A stretch of DNA of 64,000 nt from an uncultured Gemmatimonadales bacterium (GCA_963798085.1 CAWCRS010000001.1:64001-128000), one strand, 5' to 3'. Positions 10,675-37,603 are shown, counted from the first letter of the stretch. Notes: generated by a model from the letters alone, not told the origin. A program made the numbers and translations.

Positions 10675-11175
10675 TCACGGCGCCAGGAAAGGCGACTGAC
10701 GGCCCGCCTCGCTGCCGGCATCGCGGATGATCGCCGAGAGAACGCGCATGTCTCGCGACTCACCACGCAACGCGGCTGTGAGTTCATGCGCGGTGAAGCG
10801 GCCCGCGATCGTGAGATAGATCGCGCCCCTGCCGCTGGGCAGCCCGATCGCCACGACCGTGTCCTCCGCCGACCACGCGACCGGAATCTTGCCGCCGATC
10901 GCGGTGATCAGCGCAATATCGTGGTCGCCGAGCCACGGCGCGCCGTCGAGCATCTCGGCCAACGAGCCGACCGTCGTCGTCCCCGGCGACACGTGACGGC
11001 GAACCAGCTGGATGAGCGCGAGCATCCGATGCGCATCCGCCCTCGTTGCGTCGTTGGCGATGGCGCTCCAGAACGACGGCGTCTCGACCACGGGTGCGAC
11101 CTGCTCCGCTGCTCCACGGAGTTCGGCCTCCGTCGCGTCGCGCCGCTCGAACACCTCGAAAGGATGGGACGACAC
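10675..11175 (-). CDS. Hypothetical protein, candidate immunity protein
   Basis: 166-aa ORF whose GTG start overlaps the upstream TAG stop by 1 nt; no recognisable family. Confidence 0.6.
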   Translation of the reverse strand: MSSHPFEVFERRDATEAELRGAAEQVAPVVETPSFWSAIANDATRADAHRMLALIQLVRRHVSPGTTTVGSLAEMLDGAPWLGDHDIALITAIGGKIPVAWSAEDTVVAIGLPSGRGAIYLTIAGRFTAHELTAALRGESRDMRVLSAIIRDAGSEAGRQSPFLAP

Positions 11176-12161
11176 TATCTTGTTTCTATCTTTGTCGTCT
11201 TTGTTGCCTTCTTACCCTTGGCACAGCAATCCCATGTCGCTTTCAGCGTGTGCGAGATCGCGCCGGTTCCGCCACTCAGAGTCGGGGCGCTGGTGGTCGC
11301 GGGCAGGATCCACGTAGGTGCCTTGTTAGTGACCGTGAAGCTGGTCGGCAGCGTGAGGTCCTCGTAGAATTCAGCGGTCCCCCTGACCGTGACGGTTCCC
11401 TTGGTGTCACTTCCAGGACCAGGGGTAGAAAAGGAGTCGTCGTTGACGTCCCCGCCCTCGGCATAGGTCGTGACCTTCTGGTCCTTGTTGATCTGCCACG
11501 CTTCCCAGACCGGATACCAGCTCGGTTGCAACCCACCGACTTTCGCCGGATCGACCGCCTTGTTGCTGCAGTCCTTGACGCTGTACGGCACTTCTACCTT
11601 CTGAACTACCCATCCACCTTTGGTCGTCGGCTTGTCGAGCTCCCACTGAATCATCCAGTCGAAGCCACCGCAGTCATTCGCAGTCGGGCCTGACACATTC
11701 GACTTCTTCAATTTCGGCGGCTTGGTGGCGGCACCCTTTACCGCCTTGGCACCAGCGCCGCTGGTTTTCGGCCCGTGGCCGCCGGTTACCTCAGGCCACT
11801 GCCCTTCAGCCGGCAGGGATGCACCGAGCTTGCCGGCAACGTTGTCTGCTCCCCGCACGTTACCGGCACTCGCTCCGCTCGCATCGCGCCTCGCCCGGGC
11901 CGTCGCCGCCTCAGCGGCGAGTATGGGAATTCGGCCGAAATCATGACGCGCGCGCGGAATGCCGCTGGAATCGCGTGTGTCGGTTCCGGCACCCCCATCC
12001 AGCATGCCCTGCGCGGCTTGATGCGCGATTGTTTGCTGGTAATGACGCGTCGGGTGCACCTCGTTGCGGAACACGGCGGGCCCTCGACCGGACAGTCCGG
12101 GTCTGACAAATGTGGTCTGCCCGGTCGTCGGTTTCTTCGACTGCTTTGCGAAGGCGGGCAT
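11175..12161 (-). CDS. Putative eCIS cargo / polymorphic-toxin-like protein
   Basis: ATG 12161 with AGGAG RBS; low-complexity N-terminus with QQTIAHQAAQGML and HDFGRIPI; compact Trp/Cys-rich C-terminal domain (GGFDWMIQWEL, GGWVVQKV, WEAWQI, WDCC). Confidence 0.65.
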   Translation of the reverse strand: MPAFAKQSKKPTTGQTTFVRPGLSGRGPAVFRNEVHPTRHYQQTIAHQAAQGMLDGGAGTDTRDSSGIPRARHDFGRIPILAAEAATARARRDASGASAGNVRGADNVAGKLGASLPAEGQWPEVTGGHGPKTSGAGAKAVKGAATKPPKLKKSNVSGPTANDCGGFDWMIQWELDKPTTKGGWVVQKVEVPYSVKDCSNKAVDPAKVGGLQPSWYPVWEAWQINKDQKVTTYAEGGDVNDDSFSTPGPGSDTKGTVTVRGTAEFYEDLTLPTSFTVTNKAPTWILPATTSAPTLSGGTGAISHTLKATWDCCAKGKKATKTTKIETR

Positions 12162-12303
12162 GATCATCTCCTGCGTGCGCATCAGAGCCTGAACTTTCGC
12201 TGCCGTCAGCTGCGTGGCCGTGCGCAACTCCAGAGTGCGATGATCGTGACCGCCGCGCCAGCTTCATTGCCCGACCGGGAACGGCCGTGGTCCCGGATCC
12301 CGC

Positions 12304-12825
12304 TCACCCCGCGGGCAGCCGCCCGTGCGCGCGCAGGAACGGCACCAGCCCGCCCGCTTCCAGCAGCGACAGCGCAATGTCGGGGAGCGGTTCTGCTGCC
12401 TGCACGGCGTCGCGCGTCAGGTTGCGGATCTCGACGCCCGCAGCAGCCACGTGGATGTGCAGTCGATCACCCTCCCGTACGCTGCCGGTATCGCAGCACA
12501 ATGGCATTAACCCGTTGTTCACGGCGTTGCGGAAGAAGGCGCGCGCGAAGCTCTGCGCGAGCACGGCGGGGATGCCCGCCGCCAGGATCACCGTGACGGC
12601 AACTTCCATGGCCGAGCCGCAGCCGAAGTTGCGGCCCGCCACCAGCACATCGCCGGGCTGCACGGATGCGGCGAAGCCGGGATCCACCGCCTCCAGCAGC
12701 CACTGCTTCAGCTGCGCTTCATCGAGCGTGTCGCGCTTGCGTGTGGATGCGATGATGTAGTCGCTGTTGATGTGGTCGCCGAACACGCGCGCCCTCGCCT
12801 CCATGCTGCGCAGCGTGCCGGTCAT
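12304..12825 (-). CDS. LeuD/DmdB-like aconitase-family hydratase small subunit
   Basis: GDHINSDYII, AGRNFGCGS, SFARAFFRNAVNNG; ATGA overlap with the large subunit. Confidence 0.9.
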   Translation of the reverse strand: MTGTLRSMEARARVFGDHINSDYIIASTRKRDTLDEAQLKQWLLEAVDPGFAASVQPGDVLVAGRNFGCGSAMEVAVTVILAAGIPAVLAQSFARAFFRNAVNNGLMPLCCDTGSVREGDRLHIHVAAAGVEIRNLTRDAVQAAEPLPDIALSLLEAGGLVPFLRAHGRLPAG

Positions 12826-14087
12826 GACGCGAACGCGCGCGGATCGGTAATACGCCCGCTTGCAGCCGCCGCGCCACACGCGGCGGGCGAGGCCAGGTAG
12901 ATGGCGGCCCGCGCGTTGCCCATTCTCGCCTTGAAGTTGCGGTTCGCGGTGGAGAGCACGTTCATGCCGTCGCCGGGAATCGCGCCGCTGGTGCCGCAGC
13001 ACGCGCCGCAGCCGGGCGTCGTGATGATGGCGCCCAGGGCGGCATAGCGTTGCAGTGTGCCATCGGCCAGCAGCTGCAGGTACACTTCGCGCGAAGCCGG
13101 TGTGAGCACGAGCTGCACGCCCGGCGCAATGCGCCCGCCCGCGCGCTCCAGCGTGGCCAGTGCCTCATGGAAGTCGACGACGCGCCCTCCGGTACACGTC
13201 CCGATGAACACCATGTGCACCGGTGTGCCTGCCGCCTGCTCGATGCCCACCACATGGTCCGGCGAATGCGGCAGCGCCACAGCCGGCCCCAGCGCATCCA
13301 GGTTCAGAGTGACCTCGCGAACGTAATGTGCGTCGTCGTCCGACCTCACCGTCGTACCGCGCTCCGTGGTGCGACCTTCGAGGTATGCGTGCGTCTGCGC
13401 ATCGGCGGCAAAGATGGCGGCCTTGGCATCCATCTCCACGGCCAGGTTGCACAGCACCATGCGGTCGTCGACTGACATTGCCGCGGCGGCCGTGCCGTGG
13501 AATTCCAGAGTCTGATACGATGCGCCGTCGTTGCCCAGCTCGCGCACCAGGGCCAGCGCGGCATCCTTCGCGCCCACGCCCGCACCACAATGTCCGGTCA
13601 GCCGCACGCGGATCGTCGCGGGCACGCGCAGCCACACCTGTCCGGTGAGCATGGCGGCCGCAAGGTCGGAGGAGCCGACGCCGGTGGCGAAGAGACCGAG
13701 TGCGCCGCAGGTGACGGTGTGGCTGTCCGCGCCAATCACCAGATCGCCCGGCAGCACACGGCCCAGCTCCGCCGCCAGCTGGTGGCTGATGCCCTCCCCC
13801 ACTTCGTGCAGCTCCACGCCGTAATCGCGCGCAAAGCGGCGCACGCGATCATGGAACGCGGCCGTTTTTGCCGAGGCCGGCGGCGAGTAGTGGTCCAGCG
13901 CGAAGAGCACGCGCGCGGCGTCGAACACCGCGTTACCACCCATTTTCGCGAAATAGTCGATGGCCATGGGCGACGACGCATCGGTACCAATGACGCGGTC
14001 CACGCGGCACACGACGATGTCGCCGGCCCTCGCCTCGCGACCGGCCGCGCGACTCAGGATCTTCTCGCTGATCGTGCGCCCCGGCAT
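12822..14087 (-). CDS. LeuC/DmdA-like aconitase-family [4Fe-4S] hydratase large subunit
   Basis: TISEKIL, DH, GADSHT, IGTCTGGR, PGCGACCG, STANRNFKARMG; alternative GTG start at 14096. Confidence 0.92.
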   Translation of the reverse strand: MPGRTISEKILSRAAGREARAGDIVVCRVDRVIGTDASSPMAIDYFAKMGGNAVFDAARVLFALDHYSPPASAKTAAFHDRVRRFARDYGVELHEVGEGISHQLAAELGRVLPGDLVIGADSHTVTCGALGLFATGVGSSDLAAAMLTGQVWLRVPATIRVRLTGHCGAGVGAKDAALALVRELGNDGASYQTLEFHGTAAAAMSVDDRMVLCNLAVEMDAKAAIFAADAQTHAYLEGRTTERGTTVRSDDDAHYVREVTLNLDALGPAVALPHSPDHVVGIEQAAGTPVHMVFIGTCTGGRVVDFHEALATLERAGGRIAPGVQLVLTPASREVYLQLLADGTLQRYAALGAIITTPGCGACCGTSGAIPGDGMNVLSTANRNFKARMGNARAAIYLASPAACGAAAASGRITDPRAFAS

Positions 14088-14092
14088 GGCGG

Positions 14093-15379
14093 TCACGCGC
14101 TGCTGGCCGCTGCGGCCGTGGCGACCGGCGACGTCGGCAGCGTCTCGCCTTCGCCGCGCGCGACCCACGCGCTGCCCGCGAGATTGCCAATCGTGTTGAC
14201 CGTGGTGCGGCACATGTCGAGCGGGCGATCTATGCCCGCCACCAGGGCAATGGCGGCCGCCGCCTGCGGCCCCAGCCCGATCGCGTTCAATACGATGAGC
14301 GTGGTGACCAGCGAGCTGCCCGGCACGCCGGCCCCGGCAAACGCGGCCATGGTCGCGGTGAGGACGATGGTGAGCCGTGTCGCCCCCGTCAGTCCCACAC
14401 CGTACAGCTGCGCGATGAATACCGCCGTAACCGCCTTGTAGACAGCCGCACCGTTCTTGTTCAGCGTGGTGCCCGCGGGCAGCACGAAGCTGACAATGGT
14501 GTTCGAGATGCCGAGTCGGTTGCGCGCCGCCGCCATGCTCACGGGCAGTGTGGCGCTCGAGGATGCGGTGGAGAAGGCCAGCAGCAGCGCGTCGGAGGTG
14601 TCACGGAAGAAGCGTCGCACGCCGACCCGTGCGCCCACACGCAGCAGTGGCAGCAGCACCAGCGACACGTGCAGGGCCAGCGCCAGAATCACGCACAGCC
14701 CGTAGAGCAGCAGGCTGCCCAGCAGCCCGGCGCCCGAGCGCGCCACGGTGGCCGCCACCAGCAGCGCCACGGCGACCGGCGCCAGGCGCATCAGCCAGCC
14801 GATCACGACCATGCACAGCTCATTGATGCCCTGAAAGAACGCGAGCACGGTCTGCGCCGCCTGACCGCGTGTCAGTGTGGCGGCCGCGCCGAAGATGCAG
14901 ACTGCCACGATGAGCGGCAGCAGATCCGCCTGAGCGGCGGCGGCGAACGGGTTCTGCGGGATCATGGCAAGCAGTGTCTGCCCCAGCGTCGGCGCTACCG
15001 CCAGCGGCATCTCTAACGATGCGTTTGCCATGCCCAGCGAAGCCCTTGCCGCCGCATCCAGCCCGGCGCCCACGTGCAGCAGCAGCGCCAGCACCAGCCC
15101 GATGGTCGCGGCGCACAGCGTGGTGAAGAGGAACCAGAGCAGCGTCCGCCCGCCGATGCTCCCCAGACGCCGCACATCGCCCAGCGAGGCAATGCCGGTG
15201 AACAGGCTGGCCACCACCAGCGGCACCACCACCATCGTGATCAGTCGAATGAACGCGGTGCCGAACGGCTCGAGTGCGAACACCACTGTCTGCACGCTGT
15301 CCGCGCCCGGCAGCTTCGCGCCGGCACCGATCACCGCGCCGGCCAGCAGACCGGCGAGGATCTGCGTGTGCAGCTTCAT
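14093..15379 (-). CDS. Dicarboxylate/amino acid:cation symporter (DAACS, GltP/DctA family)
   Basis: FIRLITMVVVPLV, AFSTASSSATLP, AGVPG, IDRPLDMCRTTVN. Confidence 0.93.
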   Translation of the reverse strand: MKLHTQILAGLLAGAVIGAGAKLPGADSVQTVVFALEPFGTAFIRLITMVVVPLVVASLFTGIASLGDVRRLGSIGGRTLLWFLFTTLCAATIGLVLALLLHVGAGLDAAARASLGMANASLEMPLAVAPTLGQTLLAMIPQNPFAAAAQADLLPLIVAVCIFGAAATLTRGQAAQTVLAFFQGINELCMVVIGWLMRLAPVAVALLVAATVARSGAGLLGSLLLYGLCVILALALHVSLVLLPLLRVGARVGVRRFFRDTSDALLLAFSTASSSATLPVSMAAARNRLGISNTIVSFVLPAGTTLNKNGAAVYKAVTAVFIAQLYGVGLTGATRLTIVLTATMAAFAGAGVPGSSLVTTLIVLNAIGLGPQAAAAIALVAGIDRPLDMCRTTVNTIGNLAGSAWVARGEGETLPTSPVATAAAASSA

Positions 15380-15410
15380 GACGGGGGCGGCGTCGCCGCC
15401 ACGGTCCGGC

Positions 15411-16091
15411 TCACTCGATCACGCCCTTCTGCCGCAGTGCGCCGTCGATCTCGGCGCGATACAGTACGCCCGCGTGGATCTCCTCGATACGCAGGCGCTC
15501 ACGCTCCGCCAGCGCCGCGACCAGCTCGAGCACTTCCGCCGCACTGTCGCGCGGCACGACCGCGATGCCGTCGCTGTCACCCACCACGATGTCGCCCGGT
15601 GACACCACCGTGCCGCCGCAGCTGATGGGCCCATTGATCTCGCCCGGCCCATCCTTGTCACAACCACCCGGACTGACCGTGCGGCTGTACGCGGGGAAGC
15701 CCAGCCGCGTGATGGCCTCCACATCGCGGATGGCGCCATCGACGACAATGCCACCCAGGCCCTTGCCCACGGCCGTGTGACACATCAGCTCGCCAAACAC
15801 CGCGCTAGTCGTGTTGCCGCACGTGTTCACCACCACGATGTCGCCGGGCTCCGCCTCCTGCAGCGCCTTGTGCACCATCAGGTTGTCAGCGGGCCGGCAG
15901 CACACGGTGACCGCCAGGCCGCAGAGCGGCAGGGCGCTGCGCGCATGCATGCCGGGGTCCATGAAATGGAAGCGGCCCATGGCATTGGCCAGGTTGGGTG
16001 CGGCCAGTCCCTGGAAGCGGGCGACCAGCGCGGCAGCCAGGCGAGGCGGCGCTGGCAGCACGCGGAATCCCGGCTTGCCCGCCTTCGGCAT
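15411..16091 (-). CDS. RraA-family / HMG-CHA aldolase-like protein
   Basis: DNLMVHKAL, FGELM, VDGAIRD, VSPGDIVVGDSDG; AGGAG RBS before ATG 16091. Confidence 0.9.
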   Translation of the reverse strand: MPKAGKPGFRVLPAPPRLAAALVARFQGLAAPNLANAMGRFHFMDPGMHARSALPLCGLAVTVCCRPADNLMVHKALQEAEPGDIVVVNTCGNTTSAVFGELMCHTAVGKGLGGIVVDGAIRDVEAITRLGFPAYSRTVSPGGCDKDGPGEINGPISCGGTVVSPGDIVVGDSDGIAVVPRDSAAEVLELVAALAERERLRIEEIHAGVLYRAEIDGALRQKGVIE

Positions 16092-16301
16092 GATGGCATC
16101 TCCTGTCGCGCGGTTGCGACCGTGGCGTGCACACGTGCCTGCGCACGAGTCGCGCGAATCATGCGCGAGACCGGCGTAGTGCCGCAACTGCGACCGGCAG
16201 GCACCCGGCGAGAACCGGCGAGCGCGTCCTGCCAGCGAACCATTCAACCAGAGCTGAAGCCGCCTGTTCATGTGCCGCGCACCTGGTGTGCGGCTGTCGT
16301 T

Positions 16302-16401
16302 GATCCTCGCGGCGCGGGGATCCAGATCCTCGGGCCCTTGGATCTACTGCCTTCGATCCATTGCTGCCGTCTGCGCGCGAGGCCGACATTCGCGCCGGAT
16401 C
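16302..16401. promoter_or_regulatory. GATC-rich repeat cluster in the divergent promoter region upstream of the eCIS operon
   Basis: GATC at 16302, 16319, 16325, 16341, 16355 and 16398; function inferred only. Confidence 0.4.
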
Positions 16402-16427
16402 TTCAGCCGGAGCTCGGACGACGGCTC

Positions 16428-16775
16428 GTGGAACACGTTCGCGTCGTAATGGCCGGCCTGCCACGCATGCTCCGGGACCTGATCCGCGTTCAGCTGGAAG
16501 CGGAGCCGGGCGTGGTCGTGGCGGCGGAAAGTGGCGTGGTAGCGGCGCTGCCCGAACTGCTGTCGGATGGTCGGGCGGATGTGCTGGTGCTGGGCGTCAC
16601 CTCGGAGCCGAGCTGGCGTGCGGTGTGTGAAACGCTGGCGCTGCGCGAGCGGTTGCGGATGCTGACCGTGGGTGAGGGCGGGCGCGTGCTGCGCGTGTAC
16701 GCGCTGCGTGCGCGTCCGGTCGAGGGATCGATCGCAAGTCTGATCACCGCGATCCGTGAAGAGAGCGGCGAGTGA
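16428..16775 (+). CDS. Degenerate stand-alone receiver (REC)-like protein
   Basis: VRVVMAGLPRMLRDLIRVQLEAEPGVVVAAE...ADVLVLG resembles a NarL-type REC fold without the acidic pocket or phospho-Asp; no HTH. Confidence 0.6.
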   Translation: MEHVRVVMAGLPRMLRDLIRVQLEAEPGVVVAAESGVVAALPELLSDGRADVLVLGVTSEPSWRAVCETLALRERLRMLTVGEGGRVLRVYALRARPVEGSIASLITAIREESGE

Positions 16776-16827
16776 GCGGCAACCGGCGGCAGACCGGCTG
16801 CTCGCGTGTTGACGTCGAGGAGGTGCC

Positions 16828-19059
16828 ATGCCTGCAAGCCTGACGTTCCCCGGTGTTTACCTCGAAGAATTGCCCAGCGGCGTTCGCACGATCACCGGCG
16901 TGGGCACATCGCTGGCCGCGTTCCTCGGCTTTACGCCGCGCGGCCCCGTGAATCGTGCGGTGCGCGTGCAGAGCTTCGCCGATTTCGAGCGCAGCTTCGG
17001 CGGGCTCAGCACGGCCAGTCCGCTCGGGCACGCGGTGCGACAGTTCTTCCTGAACGGCGGCGCCGACGGCTATGTGGTGCGCGCCGCGGCGGGCGCACAG
17101 ACCGCGAGCGTGCAGCTGCTCGACACGGGCGGCAATCCCTCGCTCGAGGCCACGGCCTCGTCGCCGGGCGCCTGGGGCAACTTCCTCCGCCTGACAGTCG
17201 ATTACGCCACCGCATCGCCCGAGAGCACGTTCAACCTGCGCGTGACCGAGCTGGTGCTGGACGGCGGCACGCCGCGTGTGGGACGCGCGGAGAACTTCGG
17301 CGGCCTCACCATGAACAGTCTGGCCGCGAACTACGCGGTCGACGTAGTGAACGCCGCTTCACAGCTGATCCAGCTCACGCGTCTGGCGGGCGCAGCGGCC
17401 AATGCGGGCACGGCGTTCAGCGGCCCGATCGTGGCCGCTGACCTGGCCGCGCTCGACGCGGGCCACAACCGCCTGGCCGTCTTCGTCAACGGACAGGGTC
17501 CGTTCGAGGTAGCGCTGGCGCTGCCGGTCGCCGATGTCGCGGATCTCGCGAACAAGATCACGACCGGCCTGAACGCGACCGGCGATCCGCTGGCCGCGGG
17601 CGTCACCGTCTCCGCCGCGGGCAGTCGCATTCAGCTCACGTCGGGCACGACGGGTGACGACTCGACGCTTCGCGTGGGTCCCGCCAGCACCAATAATGCA
17701 TCCATCAGGCTGCACTTCGGCGTGATCAATGGCGGTCGCGAAGTCAATGCGGCGGGCGTGATCCGTCCCTCGCCCAGCGGCACGACAGGCGGCGCCGCCA
17801 TTGACACGGCCACGGTGGCGACCGGCCCGCTCGACGTCACGGTCACGCCGCGTGTGGGCGGCGCGGCCACCGACACGCTCGCGCTCACCGTTCCCCCGCA
17901 GCCGCTGACCGCGGCGCAGGTGCGCACCATTGTCGAGCAGGCCCTGCGTGCGGCCACACGCCCGGCGCTGCGCACAGCCACGGTCGCGCTGGTGGATAAC
18001 AGACTTGTCATCACTGCCGCCAATGACGATGCCACCCGCCTCGGCTTCGGCAACACGCTGGCGGCACCGCTCGGTCTGACGGGCGGCACCAGCAATGTTG
18101 CCATGTATGCGCTGGGCACCGGTCCGACAGCGGGGCAGCAGGTGCAGGGCACGTCGGGTTTCGATGGCAATCCGCCTTCGCCTGCCGACCTGATCGGCAG
18201 CCGCGCCGCACGCACCGGCCTCTACGCGCTCGAGGGCGTCGACCTCTTCAACATCATGCTGGTGCCCGGCGAAACCTCGAACGCAGTGTTATCCGAGGCG
18301 CTGGCCTACTGCACCGAGCGCCGCGCCATGCTCATTGTCGATCCGCCGCAGAATGCGCAGTCGGTGGATGATGCGACGACGTGGCTCGACTCGATCGGCG
18401 CCCTGCGCAGCCGCAACGCGGCCGCCTACTTCCCGTGGGTCTCGCTGGAGGATCCGGTGCGCGGCTTCCGTCCCACCGGCTTCCCGCCCTCGGGCACCGT
18501 GGCCGGCGTCTGGGCGCGCACGGATACCGAGCGCGGCGTGTGGAAGGCACCCGCCGGCACCGACGCCAGCCTGCGCGGCACCATCGGCCTCGCCAGCACG
18601 CTGACCGACGCGCAGAACGGCGTGCTCAATCCGCTCGGCCTCAATGTGCTGCGCACACTGCCCGTGTTCGGCTCCGTGGTCTGGGGCGCGCGCACACTGC
18701 GCGGCGCCGACCAGATGGCCGACGAATACAAGTACATCCCGGTGCGCCGCCTCGCGCTGTTCCTCGAGGAAAGTCTGTTCCGCGGCCTGCAGTGGGTGGT
18801 GTTCGAGCCCAATGATGAGCCGCTCTGGGCGCAGATCCGTCTCAATGTCGGCGCCTTCATGCAGACGCTGTTCCGCCAGGGCGCATTCGCCGGCACATCG
18901 CCACGCGACGCCTATTTCGTGAAGTGCGACAGCGAGACGACGACGCAGAACGACGTGAATCTCGGTGTGGTGAATGTGGTCGTCGGATTCGCGCCGCTCA
19001 AGCCGGCGGAATTCGTCGTTATCAAGATCCAGCAGATGGCCGGCCAGGTGCAGACCTGA
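16828..19059 (+). CDS. Contractile tail sheath protein (Afp2/3/4-like)
   Basis: PGVYLEELPSG, FFLNGG, AAAYFPW, RGVWKAPAG, VWGARTL, YIPVRR, WVVFEPND, FAPLKPAEFV; GAGGAGG RBS. Confidence 0.97.
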   Translation: MPASLTFPGVYLEELPSGVRTITGVGTSLAAFLGFTPRGPVNRAVRVQSFADFERSFGGLSTASPLGHAVRQFFLNGGADGYVVRAAAGAQTASVQLLDTGGNPSLEATASSPGAWGNFLRLTVDYATASPESTFNLRVTELVLDGGTPRVGRAENFGGLTMNSLAANYAVDVVNAASQLIQLTRLAGAAANAGTAFSGPIVAADLAALDAGHNRLAVFVNGQGPFEVALALPVADVADLANKITTGLNATGDPLAAGVTVSAAGSRIQLTSGTTGDDSTLRVGPASTNNASIRLHFGVINGGREVNAAGVIRPSPSGTTGGAAIDTATVATGPLDVTVTPRVGGAATDTLALTVPPQPLTAAQVRTIVEQALRAATRPALRTATVALVDNRLVITAANDDATRLGFGNTLAAPLGLTGGTSNVAMYALGTGPTAGQQVQGTSGFDGNPPSPADLIGSRAARTGLYALEGVDLFNIMLVPGETSNAVLSEALAYCTERRAMLIVDPPQNAQSVDDATTWLDSIGALRSRNAAAYFPWVSLEDPVRGFRPTGFPPSGTVAGVWARTDTERGVWKAPAGTDASLRGTIGLASTLTDAQNGVLNPLGLNVLRTLPVFGSVVWGARTLRGADQMADEYKYIPVRRLALFLEESLFRGLQWVVFEPNDEPLWAQIRLNVGAFMQTLFRQGAFAGTSPRDAYFVKCDSETTTQNDVNLGVVNVVVGFAPLKPAEFVVIKIQQMAGQVQT

Positions 19060-19098
19060 GTCGGGACTGTCGGCAAGTAATCTCGTCGGAGGCCGGTC

Positions 19099-19626
19099 AT
19101 GGCACAGTTCACGGTCAATGCCACGCGCTTCGATCCCTACAAGAACTTCAAGTTCCGCGTGAAGTGGGATGGTCGATACGTCGCGGGCGTGAGCAAGGTC
19201 GGTTCGCTCAAGCGCACCACGGAAGTGGTGAAGCACCGCGAGGGCGGCGATCCCAGCTCGAGCCGGAAATCCCCCGGTCGCACGGAATTCGATGCCATCA
19301 CGCTGGAGCGCGGCGTGACACACGACACCGAGTTCGAGAAATGGGCCAACAAGGTGTGGAACTTTGGCTCGGGCCTGGGCGCGGAGACGTCGCTGCGTGA
19401 TTTCCGCAAGGACGTGATCCTCGAGGTCTACAATGAAGCCGGTCAGCTGGTGCTGGCCTACAAGATCTTCCGCTGCTGGGTCTCCGAATTCCAGGCGCTG
19501 CCGGACCTCGACGCCAACGCCAATGCTGTCGCCATCCAGCACATCAAGCTGGAGAACGAAGGCTGGGAGCGTGACTACAATGTGGTCGAGCCGCAGGAGC
19601 CCAGCTTCACTGAACCGCTGACGTAG
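19099..19626 (+). CDS. Tail tube protein (T4 gp19 / Afp1/5-like)
   Basis: DPYKNFKFRV, HREGG, KSPGRTEFDAITLERG, LDANANAVAIQHIKLENEG. Confidence 0.96.
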   Translation: MAQFTVNATRFDPYKNFKFRVKWDGRYVAGVSKVGSLKRTTEVVKHREGGDPSSSRKSPGRTEFDAITLERGVTHDTEFEKWANKVWNFGSGLGAETSLRDFRKDVILEVYNEAGQLVLAYKIFRCWVSEFQALPDLDANANAVAIQHIKLENEGWERDYNVVEPQEPSFTEPLT

Positions 19627-19628
19627 TC

Positions 19629-20420
19629 GTGGGGCGCAGTACGAGTCCGTCCGATCTGCTGCGCGTCTGGGAACGAGGCGATTCGCGCCCGCTGCCCGAG
19701 CGCGCGCTCGAGCTGCTGGCGCTCGCGCTGCCGGACGCACCGTGGGACGAGCTCGCCGCCCTGTCCTTGGCCGCGCGCGATCGCGAACTGCTGCGGCTGC
19801 GCGCGGCGCTGTTCGGCGAATCGCTCGATGCCACCGCCCGCTGTCCCGCGTGTGCGGGCACGGTCGCGTTCCGCACGACAGTTCCGGAGATGCTGCGCGC
19901 CCTCTCCGGCGACGCACCGGTTCAGCGGCTGGATCTGGAAGGCGACACGTTCCGGGTCCGGCCACCGAACGCGCTCGACCTCGTCCTCGCCGCACGCTGC
20001 GCCGATGCCGCTGCCGCCACCCGCCTGGTCATGCAACGTTGTGTTAGCACAGACACCGGTGCACCGGACGACGGCAGCATGACGGCGGGGGCAGGCGCGG
20101 ACGGAGCAGGTCCGGCGGCCCGGGATAACGGCTGGTTTGACGGATTGCCGGATGCCGCGCAGGCTGCCCTTGCCGCGGCCATGGATCGCGTCACCGAGCC
20201 CGCTTCCCTGCAGATCGCACTGGCTTGCGCGGACTGTGGCGCGCATGTGCCGGTGGAGTTCGACATTGTCCCTTTCCTCTGGCGCGAAGTCGCCGCCGAG
20301 GCGAAGCGGCTCGCGAGTCAGGTCGTGCTGCTGGCCCGGGCCTTTGCCTGGCGCGAACGCGACATCCTCGAGCTCTCCGCCGCCCGCCGCCGTCTCTACC
20401 TCGAGCTGGCAGGCGGCTGA
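19629..20420 (+). CDS. eCIS tail/baseplate assembly chaperone-like protein
   Basis: Follows the tube gene; CPAC and CADC pairs; C-terminal LARAFAWRERDILELS..RR.YL motif. Confidence 0.7.
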   Translation: MGRSTSPSDLLRVWERGDSRPLPERALELLALALPDAPWDELAALSLAARDRELLRLRAALFGESLDATARCPACAGTVAFRTTVPEMLRALSGDAPVQRLDLEGDTFRVRPPNALDLVLAARCADAAAATRLVMQRCVSTDTGAPDDGSMTAGAGADGAGPAARDNGWFDGLPDAAQAALAAAMDRVTEPASLQIALACADCGAHVPVEFDIVPFLWREVAAEAKRLASQVVLLARAFAWRERDILELSAARRRLYLELAGG

Positions 20421-21199
20421 TGGGCGCGCTCGATCGTCTGGTCTCGCGCACCCTGGAGAGCGCGCCCGTGGCCCGGCCCGTGCTGACACCACTGTTCGCA
20501 GCACCCGGCCCGCCGCCGCCATTGCCCGGCCTGCCCGTACCGGAGGCTCGCGGTGCCGTCCCTGCCGGTCGCGCAACCGCCGAGCCGCGGTCGAGCGATC
20601 GGCCGGCAGGCGCCCGCGCAGAGCGACTCTCGCTCGAGGAATGGCTCGACTCCCCGGCCCGGCAGGCCAGCGCATCCGACCGCTTCACGCGCGCGGTTTT
20701 GTCAGCGGGCGAGGCTGACGCGAATGTTGCGCGCCCGCGGGGTGCAGCGTGGGCGGATCCCGCAGAGAGTGCGGCTCACGTGGCGGCGGTACGCGAGACC
20801 GTGCCCACCGGGTCGGCGCCGCGTGCGCCCATCGCCGACGCCGTCACGCAGGGCGGCGATGCGGCGCAGGCCGCGCGTGGGTCGGCCGCCGAGGCGATCG
20901 ACAGGCTGGCCCGCCGCCTGGACGCGCGCGAAGCGCAGGATGGCGCACGCCCCGCTCCACGGATTGCAGGCGACGATGCCGCCTCGGCTCGCCGGCCCGC
21001 TGCCGCGAACCCGCCGGTCGTCTTCGAACAGTCCGTTAGCAGCGCTGCCGGCGCGCCTGCGGAAGCGCCGGTGGTGCGGGTGAGCATTGGCCGCGTGCTG
21101 GTGCGCGCCATCCTGCCGCCGCCTTCGCCTCGACCCGCGGCGCGACCGGGCCCGGCCGGACCCACGCTCGAGGAGTACCTGCGCGGAGGCCGGCGATGA
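20420..21199 (+). CDS. eCIS-associated Ala/Pro-rich hypothetical protein
   Basis: Overlaps both neighbours; low complexity with C-terminal VRVSIGRVLVRA...TLEEYL. Confidence 0.7.
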   Translation: MGALDRLVSRTLESAPVARPVLTPLFAAPGPPPPLPGLPVPEARGAVPAGRATAEPRSSDRPAGARAERLSLEEWLDSPARQASASDRFTRAVLSAGEADANVARPRGAAWADPAESAAHVAAVRETVPTGSAPRAPIADAVTQGGDAAQAARGSAAEAIDRLARRLDAREAQDGARPAPRIAGDDAASARRPAAANPPVVFEQSVSSAAGAPAEAPVVRVSIGRVLVRAILPPPSPRPAARPGPAGPTLEEYLRGGRR

Positions 21200-22505
21200 G
21201 CAATGCGCTGTGCATTGCCACGGTCACGTCGACACTGCGGCGCGAACTGACGCTCGCACTGACGGCGAACGTGGCCGGTCGCGTGCCCAACACCACGGTC
21301 ACGACCCTGCGGCCGGACCGCGTGCAGAATCCGCTCGCCGATCCCACTGTCAATCTGTTCCTCTACGCGGTGACGCCGGACCCGTCGTTCCGCAACGTGG
21401 ATCTGCCCACGCGCAGCAGCAACGGCCGGCTGACGGCGGGAAACCGCGTCGCGCTCGACATGCACTACCTGCTCACGTTCCACGGCGATGATGCCACGCT
21501 CGTGCCGCAGCGGCTGCTGGCCATTACCGCGAGAACGCTGCACGCGCACCCCGTGCTGACGGCGCAGATGATCCGTGACACGGTGGCGGACGCGGCGACG
21601 TTTCCGTTCCTGGCCGGCGCCGACCTGGATCAGGCCGATGAGCCCGTGCGCATCACGCCCGCGCCGCTGACGCTCGAGGAGACATCGAAGTTCTGGGCCA
21701 TGTTCCCGCAGACGTCGGCCGCGCCATCACTGAGTTACATCGCGGCCGCCGTGCTGGTCGCTGCCGAGGCGCAGCCGGCGGCAGGACCGCCGGTACGGCT
21801 GCGCAATGTCTACGTGGTGCCGGCCGCACAGCCGTTCATCGAGCGCGTTACTGGGCCGGCCGGCATCAACGACCCGCTCGTCGCGAGCAGTACGCTGGTC
21901 ATCAGCGGACGTGCGCTGCGCGCCGATATCACACAGCTGCGCGTGGAGGCGGCCACCATCGATGTAGTGTCCAATCCAGCGGGCACGGAGATCCGCGTGC
22001 CGGTGCCCGCGACCGTACTCGCCGGACTGCGGGGCGCGCAGATCATCCAGCCGCAGCAGCTGGGCACACCGCCGGTGCCGCACCGCGGCATGGAATCCAA
22101 CGTCGCGCCGTTCCTGCTGCGGCCCGCGATCGCGCAGGACAATCCCGGCAACTTCCTGGTCTCGGCCGGCAACATCGTTGCGGGTGCGGGCAATCTGCGT
22201 ACGGCTGACATCACGTTCACCGTGACGCCCGCGGTGGGCAAGCGGCAGCGCATGCTGCTCTACCTGATCGAGCGGCTGCCGCCTGCGGATCGCGCGCCGC
22301 GCGTGTTCGCGGTCGTAGCGCCATCGCGTGACGTGCCGGCCGAACCTGAGACGCGCGCGGTGTTCACGCTCACGGCCGCGAACATCGAGGCCGGTGATTA
22401 CGTGGCCAGGCTGCAGGTGGATGGCGCCGACAGCACGTTCGTCGCCGACGCCGATCCGCAGAGCCCCACGTTCAACCAGTTCATTGCGCCCCGCGTGCAG
22501 GTCCC

Positions 22506-22509
<4 letters not shown>
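21196..22509 (+). CDS. DUF4255 / Afp16-Pvc16-like cap (tail terminator) protein with C-terminal Ig-like extension
   Basis: MSNALCIATVT, VNLFLYAV...FRN, LDMHYLLT, PSLSY. Confidence 0.9.
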
Positions 22510-24508
<1,999 letters not shown>

Positions 24509-24512
<4 letters not shown>

Positions 24513-24808
24513 GCGCGCACGCCGCGACCCGCCGGCCACAGCATGGCTCGCCCTCTCGGCCGCCGCGGTACGAGCTGCACATCGAGGAAGTCGTACTCGA
24601 GGGCTTCGACTCGCTGCCGGAACGAGCACTGCGCACAGCAATCGAGCAGGAGCTGACTCGCCTGTTCCGCGAGCGCGGCGGGCGGGCGGGCGGGCGGGAC
24701 CTCGCAGTGGACCGCGTCGATGCGGGCGCCTTCCAGGCCACCAATGTGCGCGCCGCACCTCTGGGCGCCAGCATCGCAAACGCGGTGTTCGACGGGTTGC
24801 CACGATGA
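24509..24808 (+). CDS. Small eCIS-associated hypothetical protein (99 aa)
   Basis: ATGA overlaps at both ends; ELHIEEVVLEGF...AIEQELTRL. Confidence 0.7.
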
Positions 24809-26079
24809 GTGAGCGCGCCGCCGTGCAGACTGCAACGCCCGTCCCGTCGAGTGCGGCACGCGCCGCTTCACCGGTGCGGCTGCTGCGCCGCAAGTGCGGC
24901 TGCGGCGGCGACCACGAAGGCGAGTGCGACGAGTGCAGGAAGAAGCGCATGGGCACCGTGCAGCGCTCGGCAATCGATGCCGCGTCGCTGGATCGCATTC
25001 CGCAAGAGGTCGACGAAGAGCTGGCGCGCGCCGGCACGACACTCGAGCCGGGTGTGCGCCGCTTCATGGAGCAGCGCTTCGGCCACGACTTCGGCACTGT
25101 GCGCGTGCACAGCAATGCGCGGGCCGCCGCGTCCGCTGATGCCGTGCGGGCACGGGCCTACACGGTGGGCTCTGACGTCGTGTTTGCCGCCGGCCAGTAC
25201 CAGCCGGAGACCGGTGAGGGGCGGCGCCTGCTGGCGCACGAGCTGACCCACGTCGTGCAGCAGTCGGGCAGTGCCTCGCCGGCCGCGGATTCCGCCACGG
25301 CGGAAGCCCGTGACGAAGCGGAAGCGGTGCGCGCCGAACACATGGTCGCGGCGTCGTCGCCTGCACCCGTTGCGGTTTCTTCCTCGCCCGGCAGCGCGCT
25401 GCGCCGGCAGGGTGGCGGCACGCAGGGGCAGCCTGCGCCGAAGAAGCCCAGCGCGATCGAGAAGCTTACGCACCTGACCTTCCATCTCGGTGATGCCACC
25501 TTCGAGATCGACCTGCCTTCCTCCGTCTCAGCGACCCTGCCCATTGAGCTGTCCGGCAGGACGAAGATCACGTTCGCGCTGAAAGGCACGACATCGGGCG
25601 CGTTCACCTTCACGGCCACGCTCGACGGCATTCCCCACGTGCGCATCATCGCGAAGGCCGGCGTCGAAGTGGGCGACAAGTCGAAGGCCACCGCGGGCAT
25701 CACGGTCGAAGCCACGCGCAAGGTCTGCCGCGTGAAGAACGAAGGCGAGATGCGCAAGGATCTGCAGAGTGCGGGCGACAAGCTCAAGAGCGCGATCGTC
25801 GACTTTCAGAAGCTGCCCGACGCCCTGGCGGGTGTGAGCGATGAGGTGGAGCGCGCGAAGATCATTGGTACGCGGGCGGGTGCAGTCGGCTCGGCCATTG
25901 GCGCAGTGAACAGCGCCATCGAGAAGGCGAAGGCGCCCTGCAAGGAGACGCCGGTGTTCTCGTTCGATTTCGGCGTGCAGGCGCCACTGCAGCCGGCGCA
26001 GCCGGACTTCTTCGGCCCCGGCTCCTCGGCGCCGCCCATGGGCCCATCCGTGGGCGCCACCTTCACGTGGCATTTCTAA
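24805..26079 (+). CDS. DUF4157 (eCIS core) domain protein with uncharacterised C-terminal domain
   Basis: RRKCGCGG..CDEC, FMEQRFGHDFGTVRVH, ARAYTVGSDVVF, LLAHELTHVVQQ. Confidence 0.93.
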   Translation: MSERAAVQTATPVPSSAARAASPVRLLRRKCGCGGDHEGECDECRKKRMGTVQRSAIDAASLDRIPQEVDEELARAGTTLEPGVRRFMEQRFGHDFGTVRVHSNARAAASADAVRARAYTVGSDVVFAAGQYQPETGEGRRLLAHELTHVVQQSGSASPAADSATAEARDEAEAVRAEHMVAASSPAPVAVSSSPGSALRRQGGGTQGQPAPKKPSAIEKLTHLTFHLGDATFEIDLPSSVSATLPIELSGRTKITFALKGTTSGAFTFTATLDGIPHVRIIAKAGVEVGDKSKATAGITVEATRKVCRVKNEGEMRKDLQSAGDKLKSAIVDFQKLPDALAGVSDEVERAKIIGTRAGAVGSAIGAVNSAIEKAKAPCKETPVFSFDFGVQAPLQPAQPDFFGPGSSAPPMGPSVGATFTWHF

Positions 26080-26083
26080 CGCC

Positions 26084-27043
26084 ATGTTGAGCGCCTGCCG
26101 CCTCCGTTGCAGCGCCGTCGCGCGCACGAGCGTAATGCCGGTGCTGCGCCGCACCTCGCATGCGCCGTTGATGCTGCACGGCGCAGTACGCGCCGCTGCC
26201 GATGGCGCCGCGAACGCTGCGCCGCTGCTCGCGCCCGCAACACACGATTTCGGACGCGTACTGGTGAGCAGCCGCGGTCATGGCGGCTTCGGTGATGGCG
26301 GCGACAAGCCGGTGGTCGCGGACAAGGGCAAGGAAGGCGAGCAGGGCAAGGACGCCGGCCCGGGCTCCGCAGGAACGCCGGCACCACCCGTCACATGCGT
26401 GCCCGACAAGGCGCTCGACTTCACGGACTACACGGGCACCGCACCGTCGGGCACGGGACACGCCGGCAAGACCACGTACGACTTCAATGTCGTGAGCGGC
26501 ACGGGCGGCGATGTCATCCAGGCGAAGTTCGCTGGCGCCAGCTCGTGGCTGCGGTCCGACGTCCTCAACGGCGGCGACCGCAATGCCAACGGCTGCGCCG
26601 GTATAACAACGGATTGCGAGGCCAGCTTCACCCAGGAAGGCGACTATTACGAGCTGGATTCGCGACCCGTCCCGGGGTGCGCCGCGAGCGAGCGCTACCC
26701 GGCCGGCACGAAGGCGATGAAGAAGAGCGAGTGCCGCTCCAAAGTCGAACCCGTGTGCATGACAACGAAGAAGAAAGAGGCCGCGCGCGTGCTGCACCAT
26801 GAGCAGAGGCACCTCGACCTGGGCTGCGCGCTGGCCGCCATGGGCACGGCCGCCATTGCCGCGGGCAGCAGCTCGAGTGCAGCGCTGGACCAGGTCAAGT
26901 ACACGGATGGTGTGCTGACCGCGAAATACGACAGCGAAGCGAAGAACGGTTGTGATGCCACTGCGCAGACCAAGTGGGACACCGAGATCGGCGGCGGACT
27001 GCCGTCGTACAAACTCATGACGAGGCCGAAGAAGAAGAAATGA
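26084..27043 (+). CDS. Cys-rich HExxH protein, DUF922-like putative Zn protease; candidate cargo
   Basis: HDFGRVLV near the N-terminus; LDFTDYTG, LHHEQRHLD, YDSEAKNG...QTKWDTEI; start codon uncertain. Confidence 0.7.
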   Translation: MLSACRLRCSAVARTSVMPVLRRTSHAPLMLHGAVRAAADGAANAAPLLAPATHDFGRVLVSSRGHGGFGDGGDKPVVADKGKEGEQGKDAGPGSAGTPAPPVTCVPDKALDFTDYTGTAPSGTGHAGKTTYDFNVVSGTGGDVIQAKFAGASSWLRSDVLNGGDRNANGCAGITTDCEASFTQEGDYYELDSRPVPGCAASERYPAGTKAMKKSECRSKVEPVCMTTKKKEAARVLHHEQRHLDLGCALAAMGTAAIAAGSSSSAALDQVKYTDGVLTAKYDSEAKNGCDATAQTKWDTEIGGGLPSYKLMTRPKKKK

Positions 27044-27699
27044 GCACGTTCCCCGGTTCACCGCGTGTGCTCAAGGCGGGCCTCGTGCTGCTGGATCCGG
27101 ACACGGCCGCGGTGCAGCGCGTCATTGTGCTGCAGTACAACCCGGACTCGCTGTCGCGCACACTGCAGATCCAGTCGGTGGGCGGCACCGAGGCGGAGCG
27201 CTCCGATGTCGTGCGGCTCAAGGCGCCGCCCATCGAGACGTTCAAGCTGGATGCCGAGCTGGATGCGACCGACCAGCTCGAGCATCCCGACCAGAATCCG
27301 AACGCGGTGGAGGTCGGCATCCTGCCCGAGCTGGCCGCGCTGGAAACACTGCTCTATCCCACGAGCAGCCGGCTGCAGACGGTCGATGCGCTGGCGAGGT
27401 CCGGCACGCTCGAGATCACGCCGCAGGAGGCGCCGCTGGCGCTGCTGGTGTGGAGCCGCGAGCGCGTGGTGCCGGTGCGCGTCACGGACTTCAGTGTGAC
27501 CGAGGAAGCCTTCGATCCCTCGCTCAATCCGCTGCGCGCCAGGGTCAGCCTCGGATTCCGCGCGCTGAGCATTGCCGACCTGCCTTCCGGCCACCGCGGC
27601 GCCACGCTGTTCCTGAGTTATCTGCAGCGCAAGGAACGGCTGGCGCAGCGCAGTCCCTCTCGCCCGCTCGGCTCGCTGGGCGTGGAATCGATCTCGTGA
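27040..27699 (+). CDS. CIS tube-initiator-like protein (Afp7 N-terminal equivalent)
   Basis: LQYNPDSLSRTL, LLVWS..RVVPVRVTDFSVTEEAFDPSLNPLRA; position at the start of the baseplate block. Confidence 0.8.
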   Translation: MSTFPGSPRVLKAGLVLLDPDTAAVQRVIVLQYNPDSLSRTLQIQSVGGTEAERSDVVRLKAPPIETFKLDAELDATDQLEHPDQNPNAVEVGILPELAALETLLYPTSSRLQTVDALARSGTLEITPQEAPLALLVWSRERVVPVRVTDFSVTEEAFDPSLNPLRARVSLGFRALSIADLPSGHRGATLFLSYLQRKERLAQRSPSRPLGSLGVESIS

Positions 27700-28020: not shown

Positions 28021-29141
28021 CGCCATGCTGCTCACGCTCATGGTCGGGCCCGGTGTGCCCGTGCCTGTGCCCCGCTCGGTGCTGGACGCGCTGACTTCCG
28101 TCCGCGTCATCACCGACTCGGGCGAAACCATGAGCGGCTTCGAGCTGACCTTCACCATGGACGCGCGCTCCCCGCTGCAGACGCTGTTTCTGCTCGCAGG
28201 CGGATCGCTGCCGCCCATCTTCCGCGTCGTGCTGGTAGCCACGGTCAATGGTATTGCCGAAGTGCTGATCGATGGCGTGATGACCAGCCAGCGCACGGCG
28301 CAGGCCGATGATGGCAAGGTCACGCTCACCGTGACGGGCAAGGACCTGCTCGCCGTGCTCGACTACCTGCCGCCCCTGCCCATTCCCTGGCCCGCCATGC
28401 CCGCGGAAGTGCGTGTGCTCGCCATTCTCGCGAAGTATGCGGTGTTAGGCGTTGTGCCGCTGGTCATTCCCAGCATCATGGTCAATGTGCCCATACCCAC
28501 GGACCGCATACCGCGGCAGCAGGGCACGGATCTCGAGTACGTAAAGGCGCTCGCGGATGAAGTGGGCTACGTCTTCTACCTGAAGCCGGGGCCGGTGCCG
28601 GGCATGAGCGTGGCCTACTGGGGACCCGAGATCAAGGTGGGCGCGCCGCAGTCCGCGCTGACGCTCGATGTCGAGAACAACCGCAACGCCATTTCCATTT
28701 CGTTCAGCTTCAATGCGGAAGCCGCCGAGCTGCCCATTGTCTGGATCCAGGAGCCCATCTCCGAAGGTGCCCATCGGTATTCCCATACCCGACATCACGC
28801 CGCTGAATCCGCCGCTCGCCGCGATTCCGCCGATCCCGAAGAAGTTTCCGGCCATCGATGAGACGGCGAAGTACTCGCCCGTGCGCGCACTGCTCGTGGG
28901 CCTGGCCAGGGCTGCACAGCGCGCCAATGTCACCACCGGCGATGGTTCCCTCGATGTGCTGCGCTACGGCAGGCTGCTGCGGGCGAGGGAGCTGGTGGGC
29001 GTGCGCGGCGCCGGGACCGCGTTCGATGGACTGTACTACGTCTCGCGCGTCACGCACGAGATCGGCCGCGGCGCGTACACGCAGAGCTTCACACTGAAGC
29101 GCAACGGCCTCGTCTCCAATGTTCCGCAGGTACCGGTATGA
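28013..29141 (+). pseudogene. Baseplate hub (gp27 / late-control-D / VgrG N-terminal-like) with a +1 frameshift at ~28762 (real lesion or sequencing error)
   Basis: First frame reads to IQEPIS, then the next frame continues KVPIGIPIPDITPLNPP...GLYYVSRVTHEI...QSFTLKRNG; span 1129 nt = 3n+1; both ends overlap neighbours. Confidence 0.8.
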
Positions 29142-29653
29142 GCATTCCGCAGCGCTTCTATGGCAAGTATCGCGGCACGGTGATCAACAATATCGATCCC
29201 ATGCAGCTGGGCCGCGTGCAGGTAATGGTGCCTGATGTGTCGCAGGTGGTGCCCACCAGCTGGGCGATGCCGTGCATGCCGTTCACGGGCAAGCAGATGG
29301 GCATGTGGGTGCTGCCGCAGATCGGCGCCGGTGTGTGGGTCGAGTTCGAGCAGGGCGATCCCGACTATCCCATCTGGGCCGGCTGCTGGTGGGGCTCCGC
29401 CGCGGAGCCGCCCGCACTCGCGCTGGCCGCGCCACCCGCCGTTCCTAACTTCGTCATACAGACGCAGGCGCAGAACACGCTGATGATCAGCGATGTGCCC
29501 GGCCCCACCGGCGGCATCCTGCTGAAGACCACGACCGGTGCCATGATTTCCGTGAATGACATCGGCATCACGATCTCGAACGGCAAGGGCGCGACCATCA
29601 TTCTGGCCGGCCCGACGGTGACGATCAACCAGGGCGCACTGGCGGTGACCTGA
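29138..29653 (+). CDS. Spike protein (gp5/GpV OB-fold, VgrG C-terminal equivalent)
   Basis: FYGKYRGTV..NIDP..LGRVQV.VP, WAMPC, PQIGAGVWVEFEQGDPDYPIW. Confidence 0.92.
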   Translation: MSIPQRFYGKYRGTVINNIDPMQLGRVQVMVPDVSQVVPTSWAMPCMPFTGKQMGMWVLPQIGAGVWVEFEQGDPDYPIWAGCWWGSAAEPPALALAAPPAVPNFVIQTQAQNTLMISDVPGPTGGILLKTTTGAMISVNDIGITISNGKGATIILAGPTVTINQGALAVT

Positions 29654-37556: not shown

Positions 37557-37565
37557 CAGGTCAGC

Positions 37566-37586: not shown

Positions 37587-37603
37587 CGCACAGGAGATCG
37601 ACC

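Follow-up and report, generated by a model that had tools for sequence, protein, structure and literature searches.

The stretch of DNA analysed here (hereafter the window) comprised 64,000 nucleotides from an uncultured Gemmatimonadales bacterium (GCA_963798085.1, CAWCRS010000001.1:64001-128000; C1:64001-128000 in our numbering), the genome of which (G000) consisted of 6,231,226 bases in 12 contigs with a guanine-plus-cytosine (GC) content of 67%. [quoted passage not shown] A third protein, P0001, was encoded 4.6 kb upstream of the operon on the opposite strand, with four metabolic genes (Aconitase, Aconitase_C, a dicarboxylate symporter and an RraA-like gene, by Pfam) between them. P0001, P0002 and P0003 each contain an HDFG motif (HDFGRIPI, HDFGTVRV and HDFGRVLV, respectively; Table 1), in which a first-pass annotation, made by a model from the sequence, had seen a minimal tag derived from the DUF4157 domain and used for loading cargo into the eCIS. 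The results presented below indicate that the motif, called the 'HDF box' here, is very probably one block of an N-terminal leader that is conserved widely and found on toxin-like eCIS cargo. As such it genuinely marks polymorphic cargo of eCIS, and a role as loading tag is plausible.

Translation of the window confirmed all three motifs at the positions annotated, within 14,298 bases and each in the N-terminal region of a gene in or beside the eCIS operon. In a six-frame scan of the genome the strict form HDF[GS].[IV].[IV] gave exactly three matches, namely the same three sites, and the looser [HF]DF form added two unrelated genomic sites; the genome scan proposed in the first-pass annotation thus confined the strict motif to the eCIS locus. 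From residue frequencies, 0.23 occurrences of the strict motif were expected in the 12.46 million positions scanned, and six permuted control motifs occurred 0, 0, 1, 0, 1 and 0 times. The C-terminal parts of P0001, P0002 and P0003 had no meaningful similarity to one another by BLASTP, in line with their annotation as unrelated proteins, and DUF4157 (PF13699; gathering score 22 bits) was found in P0002 only, so that, as annotated, two of the three motif proteins are without the domain. The match in P0002 was strong (E 4.6e-33, 113.7 bits, residues 280-355 of the long ORF; E 1.3e-33, 117.7 bits in the search of the genome), and the domain was absent from P0001 and P0003 in Pfam searches even at E<=1, neither protein being among the nine genome matches to PF13699 at E<=10.

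Table 1. Features of the window (positions counted from its first nucleotide)
Feature	Position	Strand	Description
166-aa ORF	10675..11175	-	Start overlaps P0001 stop codon; candidate partner/immunity gene
P0001 (P0004, 328 aa)	11175..12161	-	N-terminal leader, low-complexity linker, beta-sandwich C-terminal domain
P0001 C-terminal domain	11178..11744	-	All-beta sandwich in AlphaFold2 (AF2) model, predicted local distance difference test (pLDDT) score 95.8
P0001 leader, residues 1-90	11892..12161	-	MPAFAKQ start, degenerate GNQA box YQQTIAHQAAQGML, HDF box at residue 73
HDF box, leader type	11922..11945	-	HDFGRIPI, R-I-P signature; from translation; residue 73, the canonical position
eCIS sheath	16828..19059	+	Phage_sheath_1 + Phage_sheath_1C
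eCIS tube	19099..19626	+	Phage_T4_gp19, E 6.8e-45
Cap / tail terminator, Pvc16-like	21196..22509	+	Pvc16_N, E 8e-40
AAA+ ATPase, Pvc15-like	22506..24512	+	AAA + WHD domains; presumed cargo loader
P0002 (424 aa from Met 24805)	24805..26079	+	Cys box, DUF4157, C-terminal domain without assigned function
DUF4157/eCIS_core (PVC-metallopeptidase) domain	25042..25269	+	PF13699, with HELTH
HDF box, domain type	25084..25107	+	HDFGTVRV followed by H; 51 residues ahead of HExxH
P0003 (319 aa)	26084..27043	+	Short N-terminus, HDF box, Gly-rich linker, C-terminal domain with HEQRH
HDF box, intermediate type	26243..26266	+	HDFGRVLV; from translation
Second tube-like protein	26974..27699	+	CIS_tube, E 7.8e-6, slightly under the curated cut-off
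Spike and baseplate block	29138..40405	+	Phage_base_V, gp25, Baseplate_J, P2_I-like, DUF6519

The leader was most complete in P0001 (ORF 11175-12227, minus strand; probable start at the Met at 12161), whose first 85 residues belong to the leader family and whose leader could be aligned over its full length to 33 leaders from other phyla. In a search of the genome with a profile of the leader (A1), P0001 was the only match, so that neither P0002 nor P0003 was recovered; the match (E 1.2e-31, positions 1-84) took in all three leader blocks from residue 1 onwards. P0001 thus consists of leader blocks 1-3 without DUF4157, and its sequence contains no HExxH. In its usual form the leader comprises about 85 residues, with MxTFAxK first, then LQRTIGNQAVQ (the 'GNQA box') and then the HDF box, RFGHDFS[RQ]IP[IV]H, at residue ~73. 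The canonical full-length protein begins at residue 1 and continues with the GNQA box (~40), HDF box 1 (~73), YEQEAD (~101), the Cys box CxCGGxCxxC and a second HDF box (~189); this box 2 opens DUF4157 and is followed by HExxH 51 residues on and by a variable C-terminus. Box 2 lies about 115 residues downstream of box 1 and is near-identical to it (consensus PRFGHDFSRIPIHP for box 1 and EPRFGHDFSxVRVHxD for box 2). Since most relatives carry both the leader box and the domain's own box, the HDF box coexists with DUF4157 and does not replace it. The proposal of a stand-alone minimal tag left behind by domain loss was accordingly not borne out, the HDF box being block 3 of a leader that normally stands alongside DUF4157, and the domain having a box of its own.

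The leader was found to be widespread, and is covered by no Pfam or NCBIfam model. A scan of GTDB (one genome per species) with an alignment of ten leaders gave 151 confirmed loci, of which the best 80 matches, corresponding to 79 distinct loci, were kept. These were distributed among Acidobacteriota, Verrucomicrobiota, Planctomycetota, Chloroflexota, Desulfobacterota, Gammaproteobacteria, Cyanobacteriota, Nitrospirota and Bacteroidota, together with two archaeal metagenome-assembled genomes (MAGs), the highest identity to the leader used as query being 79%. Matches to the strict motif in the 79 loci fell into 18 within the domain (x-V-R-[VI]) and 16 standing alone, the latter mostly R-I-P-[IV]. 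Among 1.84 billion representatives clustered at 50% identity, a profile built from 34 leaders, with P0001 at its head, matched 2,180 proteins at E<=1e-3, of which 1,020 passed E<=1e-10 and 133 also E<=1e-30, and in nearly all of the best 150 of the 2,180 the match began at residue 1. A box-1-like motif of the form HDFS[RQ]IP[IVL] was located at residues 60-95 in 128 of the 148 top matches examined, most commonly as HDFSRIPI (25), HDFSRIPV (15) or HDFSQIPL (12). By regular expression, 89 of these 148 ran into an HExxH domain, 37 proteins of at least 200 amino acids did not, and 22 were shorter than 200 amino acids; Pfam assigned PF13699 to 21 of the 37 and not to the other 16. Leader-only proteins like P0001 therefore form a recurrent minority (16 of 126 top matches of at least 200 amino acids are without PF13699). 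Tandem boxes of leader type were present in some relatives, for example HDFSRIPL and HDFSLIPI in P0012 and an insert with WDFSRIPA in L025:7025-8080, showing that the box can be duplicated within the leader.

P0002 and P0003 carry other parts of the same constant region. The ORF of P0002 extends over 24205-26079, with its probable start at the Met at 24805, so that the protein begins with the Cys box; of the blocks ahead of it, MxTFA, GNQA and the first HDF box are all missing. Its motif is the box of the domain itself, HDFGTVRVH followed by HELTH, with a spacing to HExxH (+51) identical to that in seven domain-bearing loci; this spacing was found in neither P0001 nor P0003, the HEQRH of P0003 being about 180 residues downstream of its box. 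Read from the translations, the constant region is split in the window over three cargo genes, with blocks 1-3 in P0001, the Cys box and DUF4157 in P0002, and the box only in P0003. What the first-pass annotation had picked up was thus the one element shared by three versions of a single constant region, each truncated in its own way.

That P0001 and P0003 are cargo at all is supported indirectly, by their sequences, since the C-terminal domains of both recur behind DUF4157 elsewhere. The C-terminal domain of P0003 matched those of two proteins with leader and DUF4157 (L017, 1e-12; L083, 3e-6), and that of P0001 was common to 80 proteins in a search with the whole of P0001, following PF13699 in six of them. 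The N-termini of these 80 relatives were modular mixes of the MxTFAxK start, LQRTIGNQAVQRxL and PRFGHDFS[RQ]IP[IV]H; by loose regular expressions, 24 had the GNQA box only, 19 the HDF box only, nine both boxes, six DUF4157 and 22 neither box, some of the last being truncated gene calls. The same C-terminal module was thus found behind GNQA-only, HDF-only, both-box and DUF4157 N-termini, that is, behind different constant N-termini including the PVC-metallopeptidase, which is the arrangement of PVC-type polymorphic toxins. Judging from these N-termini, the GNQA box and the HDF box behave as separable modules, the HDF box being neither universal nor the commoner of the two. Structural comparison of the P0001 C-terminal domain with the PDB gave nothing at E<=1e-3 with Foldseek, and generic immunoglobulin/fibronectin type III (Ig/FN3)-like sandwiches only (best Z 6.1) with VIA-align wide. 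For P0003, protein-atlas features gave a weak lead to DUF922 Zn-dependent proteases (score 0.88), and Pfam gave no DUF922 match at E<=1. NCBIfam had no model for P0001, P0002 or P0003, nor for one canonical leader protein. A word-indexed homologue search with the P0001 leader region or with the whole of P0003 returned the query itself only, and among 60 related genomes no homologues of P0001 or P0003 were found, three weak matches to P0003 at E>2e-3 having been dismissed.

Leader-bearing genomes were strongly enriched for eCIS. The cap family PF14065 (Pvc16_N) scored above its cut-off in 60 of 76 leader-bearing genomes (39/50 and 21/26 in two sets), against baselines of 22/401 genomes in the phylum of the present genome and 14/171 in that of an Acidobacteriota record (G062; this baseline includes the leader-bearing G062 and G083), ratios which are overstated and indicative only because related genomes are not independent. 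The tallies include genomes flagged as unpublished (G162, G270, G248, G510, G664 and G537). In the sample of 401 genomes, strong matches to the leader profile were obtained in G000 and G042 only, both of which are cap-positive, and two weak matches (E ~2e-3) in cap-negative genomes. Homologues of the operon's AAA+ ATPase were found in 21 of the 22 cap-positive genomes searched.

The leader genes themselves were mostly located at a distance from the eCIS structural genes. By tblastn with the eCIS proteins of the window as queries, structural genes were detected within 10 kb in five of the 79 leader loci (L023, weakly, L056, L061, L088 and L091), and a Pfam search of 142 ORFs in ten full 20-kb leader loci found no eCIS structural domain; in G061, which is essentially one contig, the leader gene lies ~6.5 Mb from the cap gene. 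Cargo encoded away from the operon thus appears to be common in the leader family. Transposase or integrase genes were present near leader+DUF4157 genes in six of the ten loci (L015, L021, L027, L031, L032 and L045), the types flanking such orphan leader genes being IS1, IS21, IS110, IS200, DDE and Mutator, and these flanks suggest that the cargo genes may move as cassettes. Two claims of the first-pass annotation are upheld by these data: the motif is tied to DUF4157-family eCIS cargo and is present on proteins without the domain, and it flags cargo encoded outside the operon (P0001 in the window, and all ten of the full 20-kb loci elsewhere).

As a search key the eight-letter motif performed less well. 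A loosened pattern at the DNA level (HDF-[G/S and neighbours]-x-[IVM]-x-[IVM]) occurred in 282 of the 401 genomes, namely in 19 of the 22 with a cap gene and in 263 of the 379 without one, so that its use as a finder of further effectors was not supported. The main false positive for the 8-mer was a recurring HDFGKVGV site in many genomes of family f4 (for example L101-L103, L105 and L107-L110), apparently a conserved unrelated gene. A refined pattern with R or P at position 7 reduced the number to 56 of 401 genomes with 59 matches listed; hand translation of these 59 with [GS] at position 4 and [IV] at position 6 left 11 of the 22 cap-positive genomes and 17 of the 379 without the cap. Among the 59 refined matches, 30 were fetched as loci. 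Seven of these were true DUF4157 boxes followed by HExxH at +51, six of them from cap-positive genomes and the seventh from G162; one was a true standalone box (HDFSRVPIHPP at residue 88 of a 595-aa frame in L134, from cap-positive G236), and 22 were seemingly chance matches. In the comparison of eCIS-positive with eCIS-negative genomes suggested in the first-pass annotation, genuine boxes thus belonged almost exclusively to eCIS-positive genomes, but the bare 8-mer lacks specificity and is not usable as a key. The motif helps to flag eCIS cargo and is not, alone, a reliable loading tag; because false positives overwhelm the 8-mer, searches need the complete leader profile or a box checked for its context.

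Taken together, the HDF box is best explained as a conserved block in the constant N-terminal region of eCIS/PVC-type polymorphic cargo, a region with the order MxTFAxK, LQRTIGNQAVQ, box 1, YEQEAD helix, CxCGGxCxxC, DUF4157 with box 2, and a swappable C-terminal effector. In this explanation the leader would serve as an address region, allowing the eCIS loading machinery to recognise cargo irrespective of where the gene lies. Its separable elements would number at least two, the HDF box and the GNQA box, and its likeliest reader would be the Pvc15-like AAA+ ATPase of the operon. We give this explanation as a whole a probability of roughly 0.6. The loading role is proposed by analogy with AlgoCIS. 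AlgoCIS is the only DUF4157 system tested, and in it the region upstream of DUF4157 is described as needed for loading and the domain, box 2 included, as dispensable (10.64898/2026.05.27.728243), with an AAA+ protein mediating the loading (10.64898/2026.05.27.728243; Xu et al. 2022, PMC8894135). The HDF box itself might be a loading determinant, which we regard as doubtful. Equally tentative is the broader proposal that the ~85-residue leader, or the 12-residue HDF box, could be a portable, sequence-defined address shared across phyla and read by the loading ATPase of DUF4157-type eCIS; the DUF4157 box would then be the same address built into a folded domain, and would become accessible as the ATPase unfolded the cargo.

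Several points weigh against this explanation. Some members of the family do without the HDF box, given that 24 of the 80 relatives sharing the P0001 C-terminal domain had the GNQA box only and 22 had neither box by loose regular expressions, and the motif is thus not universal. For P0003, hhalign aligned 14 columns with the leader profile, at the box only and without significance (E 0.027), and 11 columns with a leader+domain profile (E 0.15), and the boxes of both P0001 and P0003 are without the trailing His that is present in nearly all relatives. No cap gene was detected in 16 of the 76 leader-bearing genomes, many of these 16 being incomplete MAGs, and the non-independence of genomes mentioned above applies here also. 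According to a preprint, loading sequences are not conserved between eCIS systems (10.64898/2026.05.27.728243), to which the leader would be an exception within a large DUF4157 subfamily. Finally, docking of box 1 as a strand onto DUF4157 in cis was unsupported in an AF2 model of a canonical leader+DUF4157 protein (L016:10001-10900; alignment of 35 rows), where box 1 had a pLDDT of ~61 and formed no strand.

In the same model DUF4157 was a folded domain (pLDDT >90), within which HDFS formed a loop after a helix and VRVH the first strand, and the GNQA segment was a helix with pLDDT 56-68. The YEQEAD segment (residues 100-114) formed a helix modelled about as confidently as the domain (pLDDT ~90), the rest of the leader being uncertain; the helix might lie against the peptidase, in the manner of a pro-segment for instance. 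Co-folding of the P0001 leader (A3) with the operon ATPase (A5) gave an ipSAE of 0.00 in both runs, which were made without control runs and count neither way.

As an alternative, the box would be a processing site, the DUF4157 zinc peptidase recognising a copy of its own N-terminal segment and cutting the leader off. Canonical proteins would be cut in cis, and proteins that have no domain in trans, P0001 and P0003 being the substrates of P0002, with release of the effector during or after delivery. The shared RFGHDFS..[IV].H of box 1 and the start of DUF4157 would fit such a recognition, as would the location of both domain-less proteins beside or near the one DUF4157 protein; in the literature, the PVC-metallopeptidase has been proposed to be an autoproteolytic releasing peptidase (Zhang et al. 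2012, PMC3482391) and DUF4157 has been speculated to act in cis or trans on neighbouring effectors (Danov et al. 2024, PMC11297309). However, the AF2 model gave box 1 no confident placement in or near the active site, box 1 is ~100 residues upstream of the domain when a releasing cut would be expected between domain and effector, and growth inhibition by Cgo1 is described as independent of the metalloprotease motifs (Xu et al. 2022 via Danov et al. 2024, PMC11297309). We consider a processing site unlikely.

Alternatively, the box in P0003, and possibly that in P0001, could be a functionless scar of cassette recombination or decay from leader+DUF4157 genes, retained through descent alone, which we find quite improbable. 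Cassette shuffling of polymorphic toxins (PMC3482391) would be expected to leave both C-terminal domains behind full DUF4157 regions elsewhere, as was found, and nothing else of the leader is left in P0003. The lost trailing His of both boxes points the same way, as do the mobile-element flanks of leader genes in six of ten loci and the base composition of the P0001 gene (window 11000-12199), at 61-64% GC against 68-70% in the flanking metabolic genes, which is consistent with a horizontally acquired cassette. The position of box 1 is nevertheless fixed in 128 of 148 top family members from many phyla, and 19 of the 80 P0001 relatives keep the HDF box without the GNQA box, several of them with a very short N-terminus; this fixed position and this retention suggest that the box as such is under selection. 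A chance coincidence is effectively refuted, although short patterns do recur, as the loosened DNA form does (282/401 genomes). Three matches were observed where 0.23 were expected; they lie within 14.3 kb of the 6.23-Mb genome and near the N-termini of proteins encoded in the eCIS operon or next to it, and the leader that contains the P0001 box was matched at E 1.2e-31.

The explanation of the HDF box as a block of a constant region with an address function may be compared with known systems. DUF4157 is established as the eCIS core domain and a cargo marker (Geller 2021, PMC8213781; Danov 2024, PMC11297309), and was earlier named the PVC-metallopeptidase of polymorphic toxins, whose PVC-type members were described as behaving like cassettes (Zhang et al. 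2012, PMC3482391). P0002 is a member of this family (PF13699), its motif being the start of the domain, and shares with it a constant N-terminus, a variable effector and the link to eCIS, whereas P0001 and P0003 are without the domain and the leader lies upstream of the Pfam model. AlgoCIS Cgo1 and Cgo2 likewise combine a disordered N-terminal region, required for loading by the AAA+ protein, with DUF4157 and a variable C-terminal domain; in contrast to the leader, conserved across many phyla, their loading sequences are reported to be system-specific. Disordered N-termini are already known as packaging signals. Jiang and co-workers are said to have found in 2022 that N-terminal signal peptides of PVC payloads are read by Pvc15. 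The likeness to the leader consists in an unstructured N-terminal address on unrelated payloads together with an operon-encoded AAA+ ATPase. As a difference, the PVC payloads Pdp1 and Pnf are described as having no DUF4157 (10.64898/2026.05.27.728243). The same PROCIS preprint reports that no sequence motif is common to the eCIS systems compared (10.64898/2026.05.27.728243).

Short conserved motifs ahead of swappable toxin modules also occur in the constant regions of other polymorphic toxins, with VENN in CdiA and PxxxxDPxGL in Rhs as junction or pre-toxin motifs. These differ from box 1 in standing at the junction of constant and variable parts, box 1 being situated mid-leader, with a second copy where the peptidase domain begins. 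In the available portions of the literature examined, no description was found of an MxTFAxK/GNQA/HDF leader, of box 1 as a duplicate of the first 12 residues of the domain, or of leader-only cargo, and a full-text search with the box strings, the scope of which excluded figures and bioRxiv supplements, returned an unrelated plant paper only.

Cargo of eCIS is at present predicted from proximity to the operon, from the DUF4157 domain and from a vague N-terminal disorder, to which a conserved leader upstream of DUF4157 would add a sharper marker. Because the leader is also present on proteins that have no DUF4157, and its genes mostly lie at a distance from the operon, such a marker would find orphan effectors; P0001 is the one it identifies in the window. 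For studies of loading, concrete targets for mutation are provided by the GNQA box, the HDF box and the YEQEAD helix. Were the leader a portable address, a cell could load cargo irrespective of the position of its gene in the genome, one profile would be enough to list all the orphan cargo of any genome with an eCIS, and the current view of eCIS loading sequences as unconserved and system-specific would be contradicted.

Some further features of the locus and genome may be recorded. The ORF whose start overlaps the stop codon of P0001 belongs to no Pfam or NCBIfam family and has no relative in the fetched loci or elsewhere in the genome; one might guess that it is an immunity or partner gene for P0001. 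Within the eCIS operon, the ORFs at 19629-20420, 20225-21199, 28013-28861 and 28668-29141 are without a Pfam family. Outside the window, at a distance from the eCIS locus, a 229-aa frame without an HDF box gave a second, partial match to PF13699 (G000:C7:1078167-1078271; 24 bits), which covered the HExxH half of the domain (profile positions 37-76).

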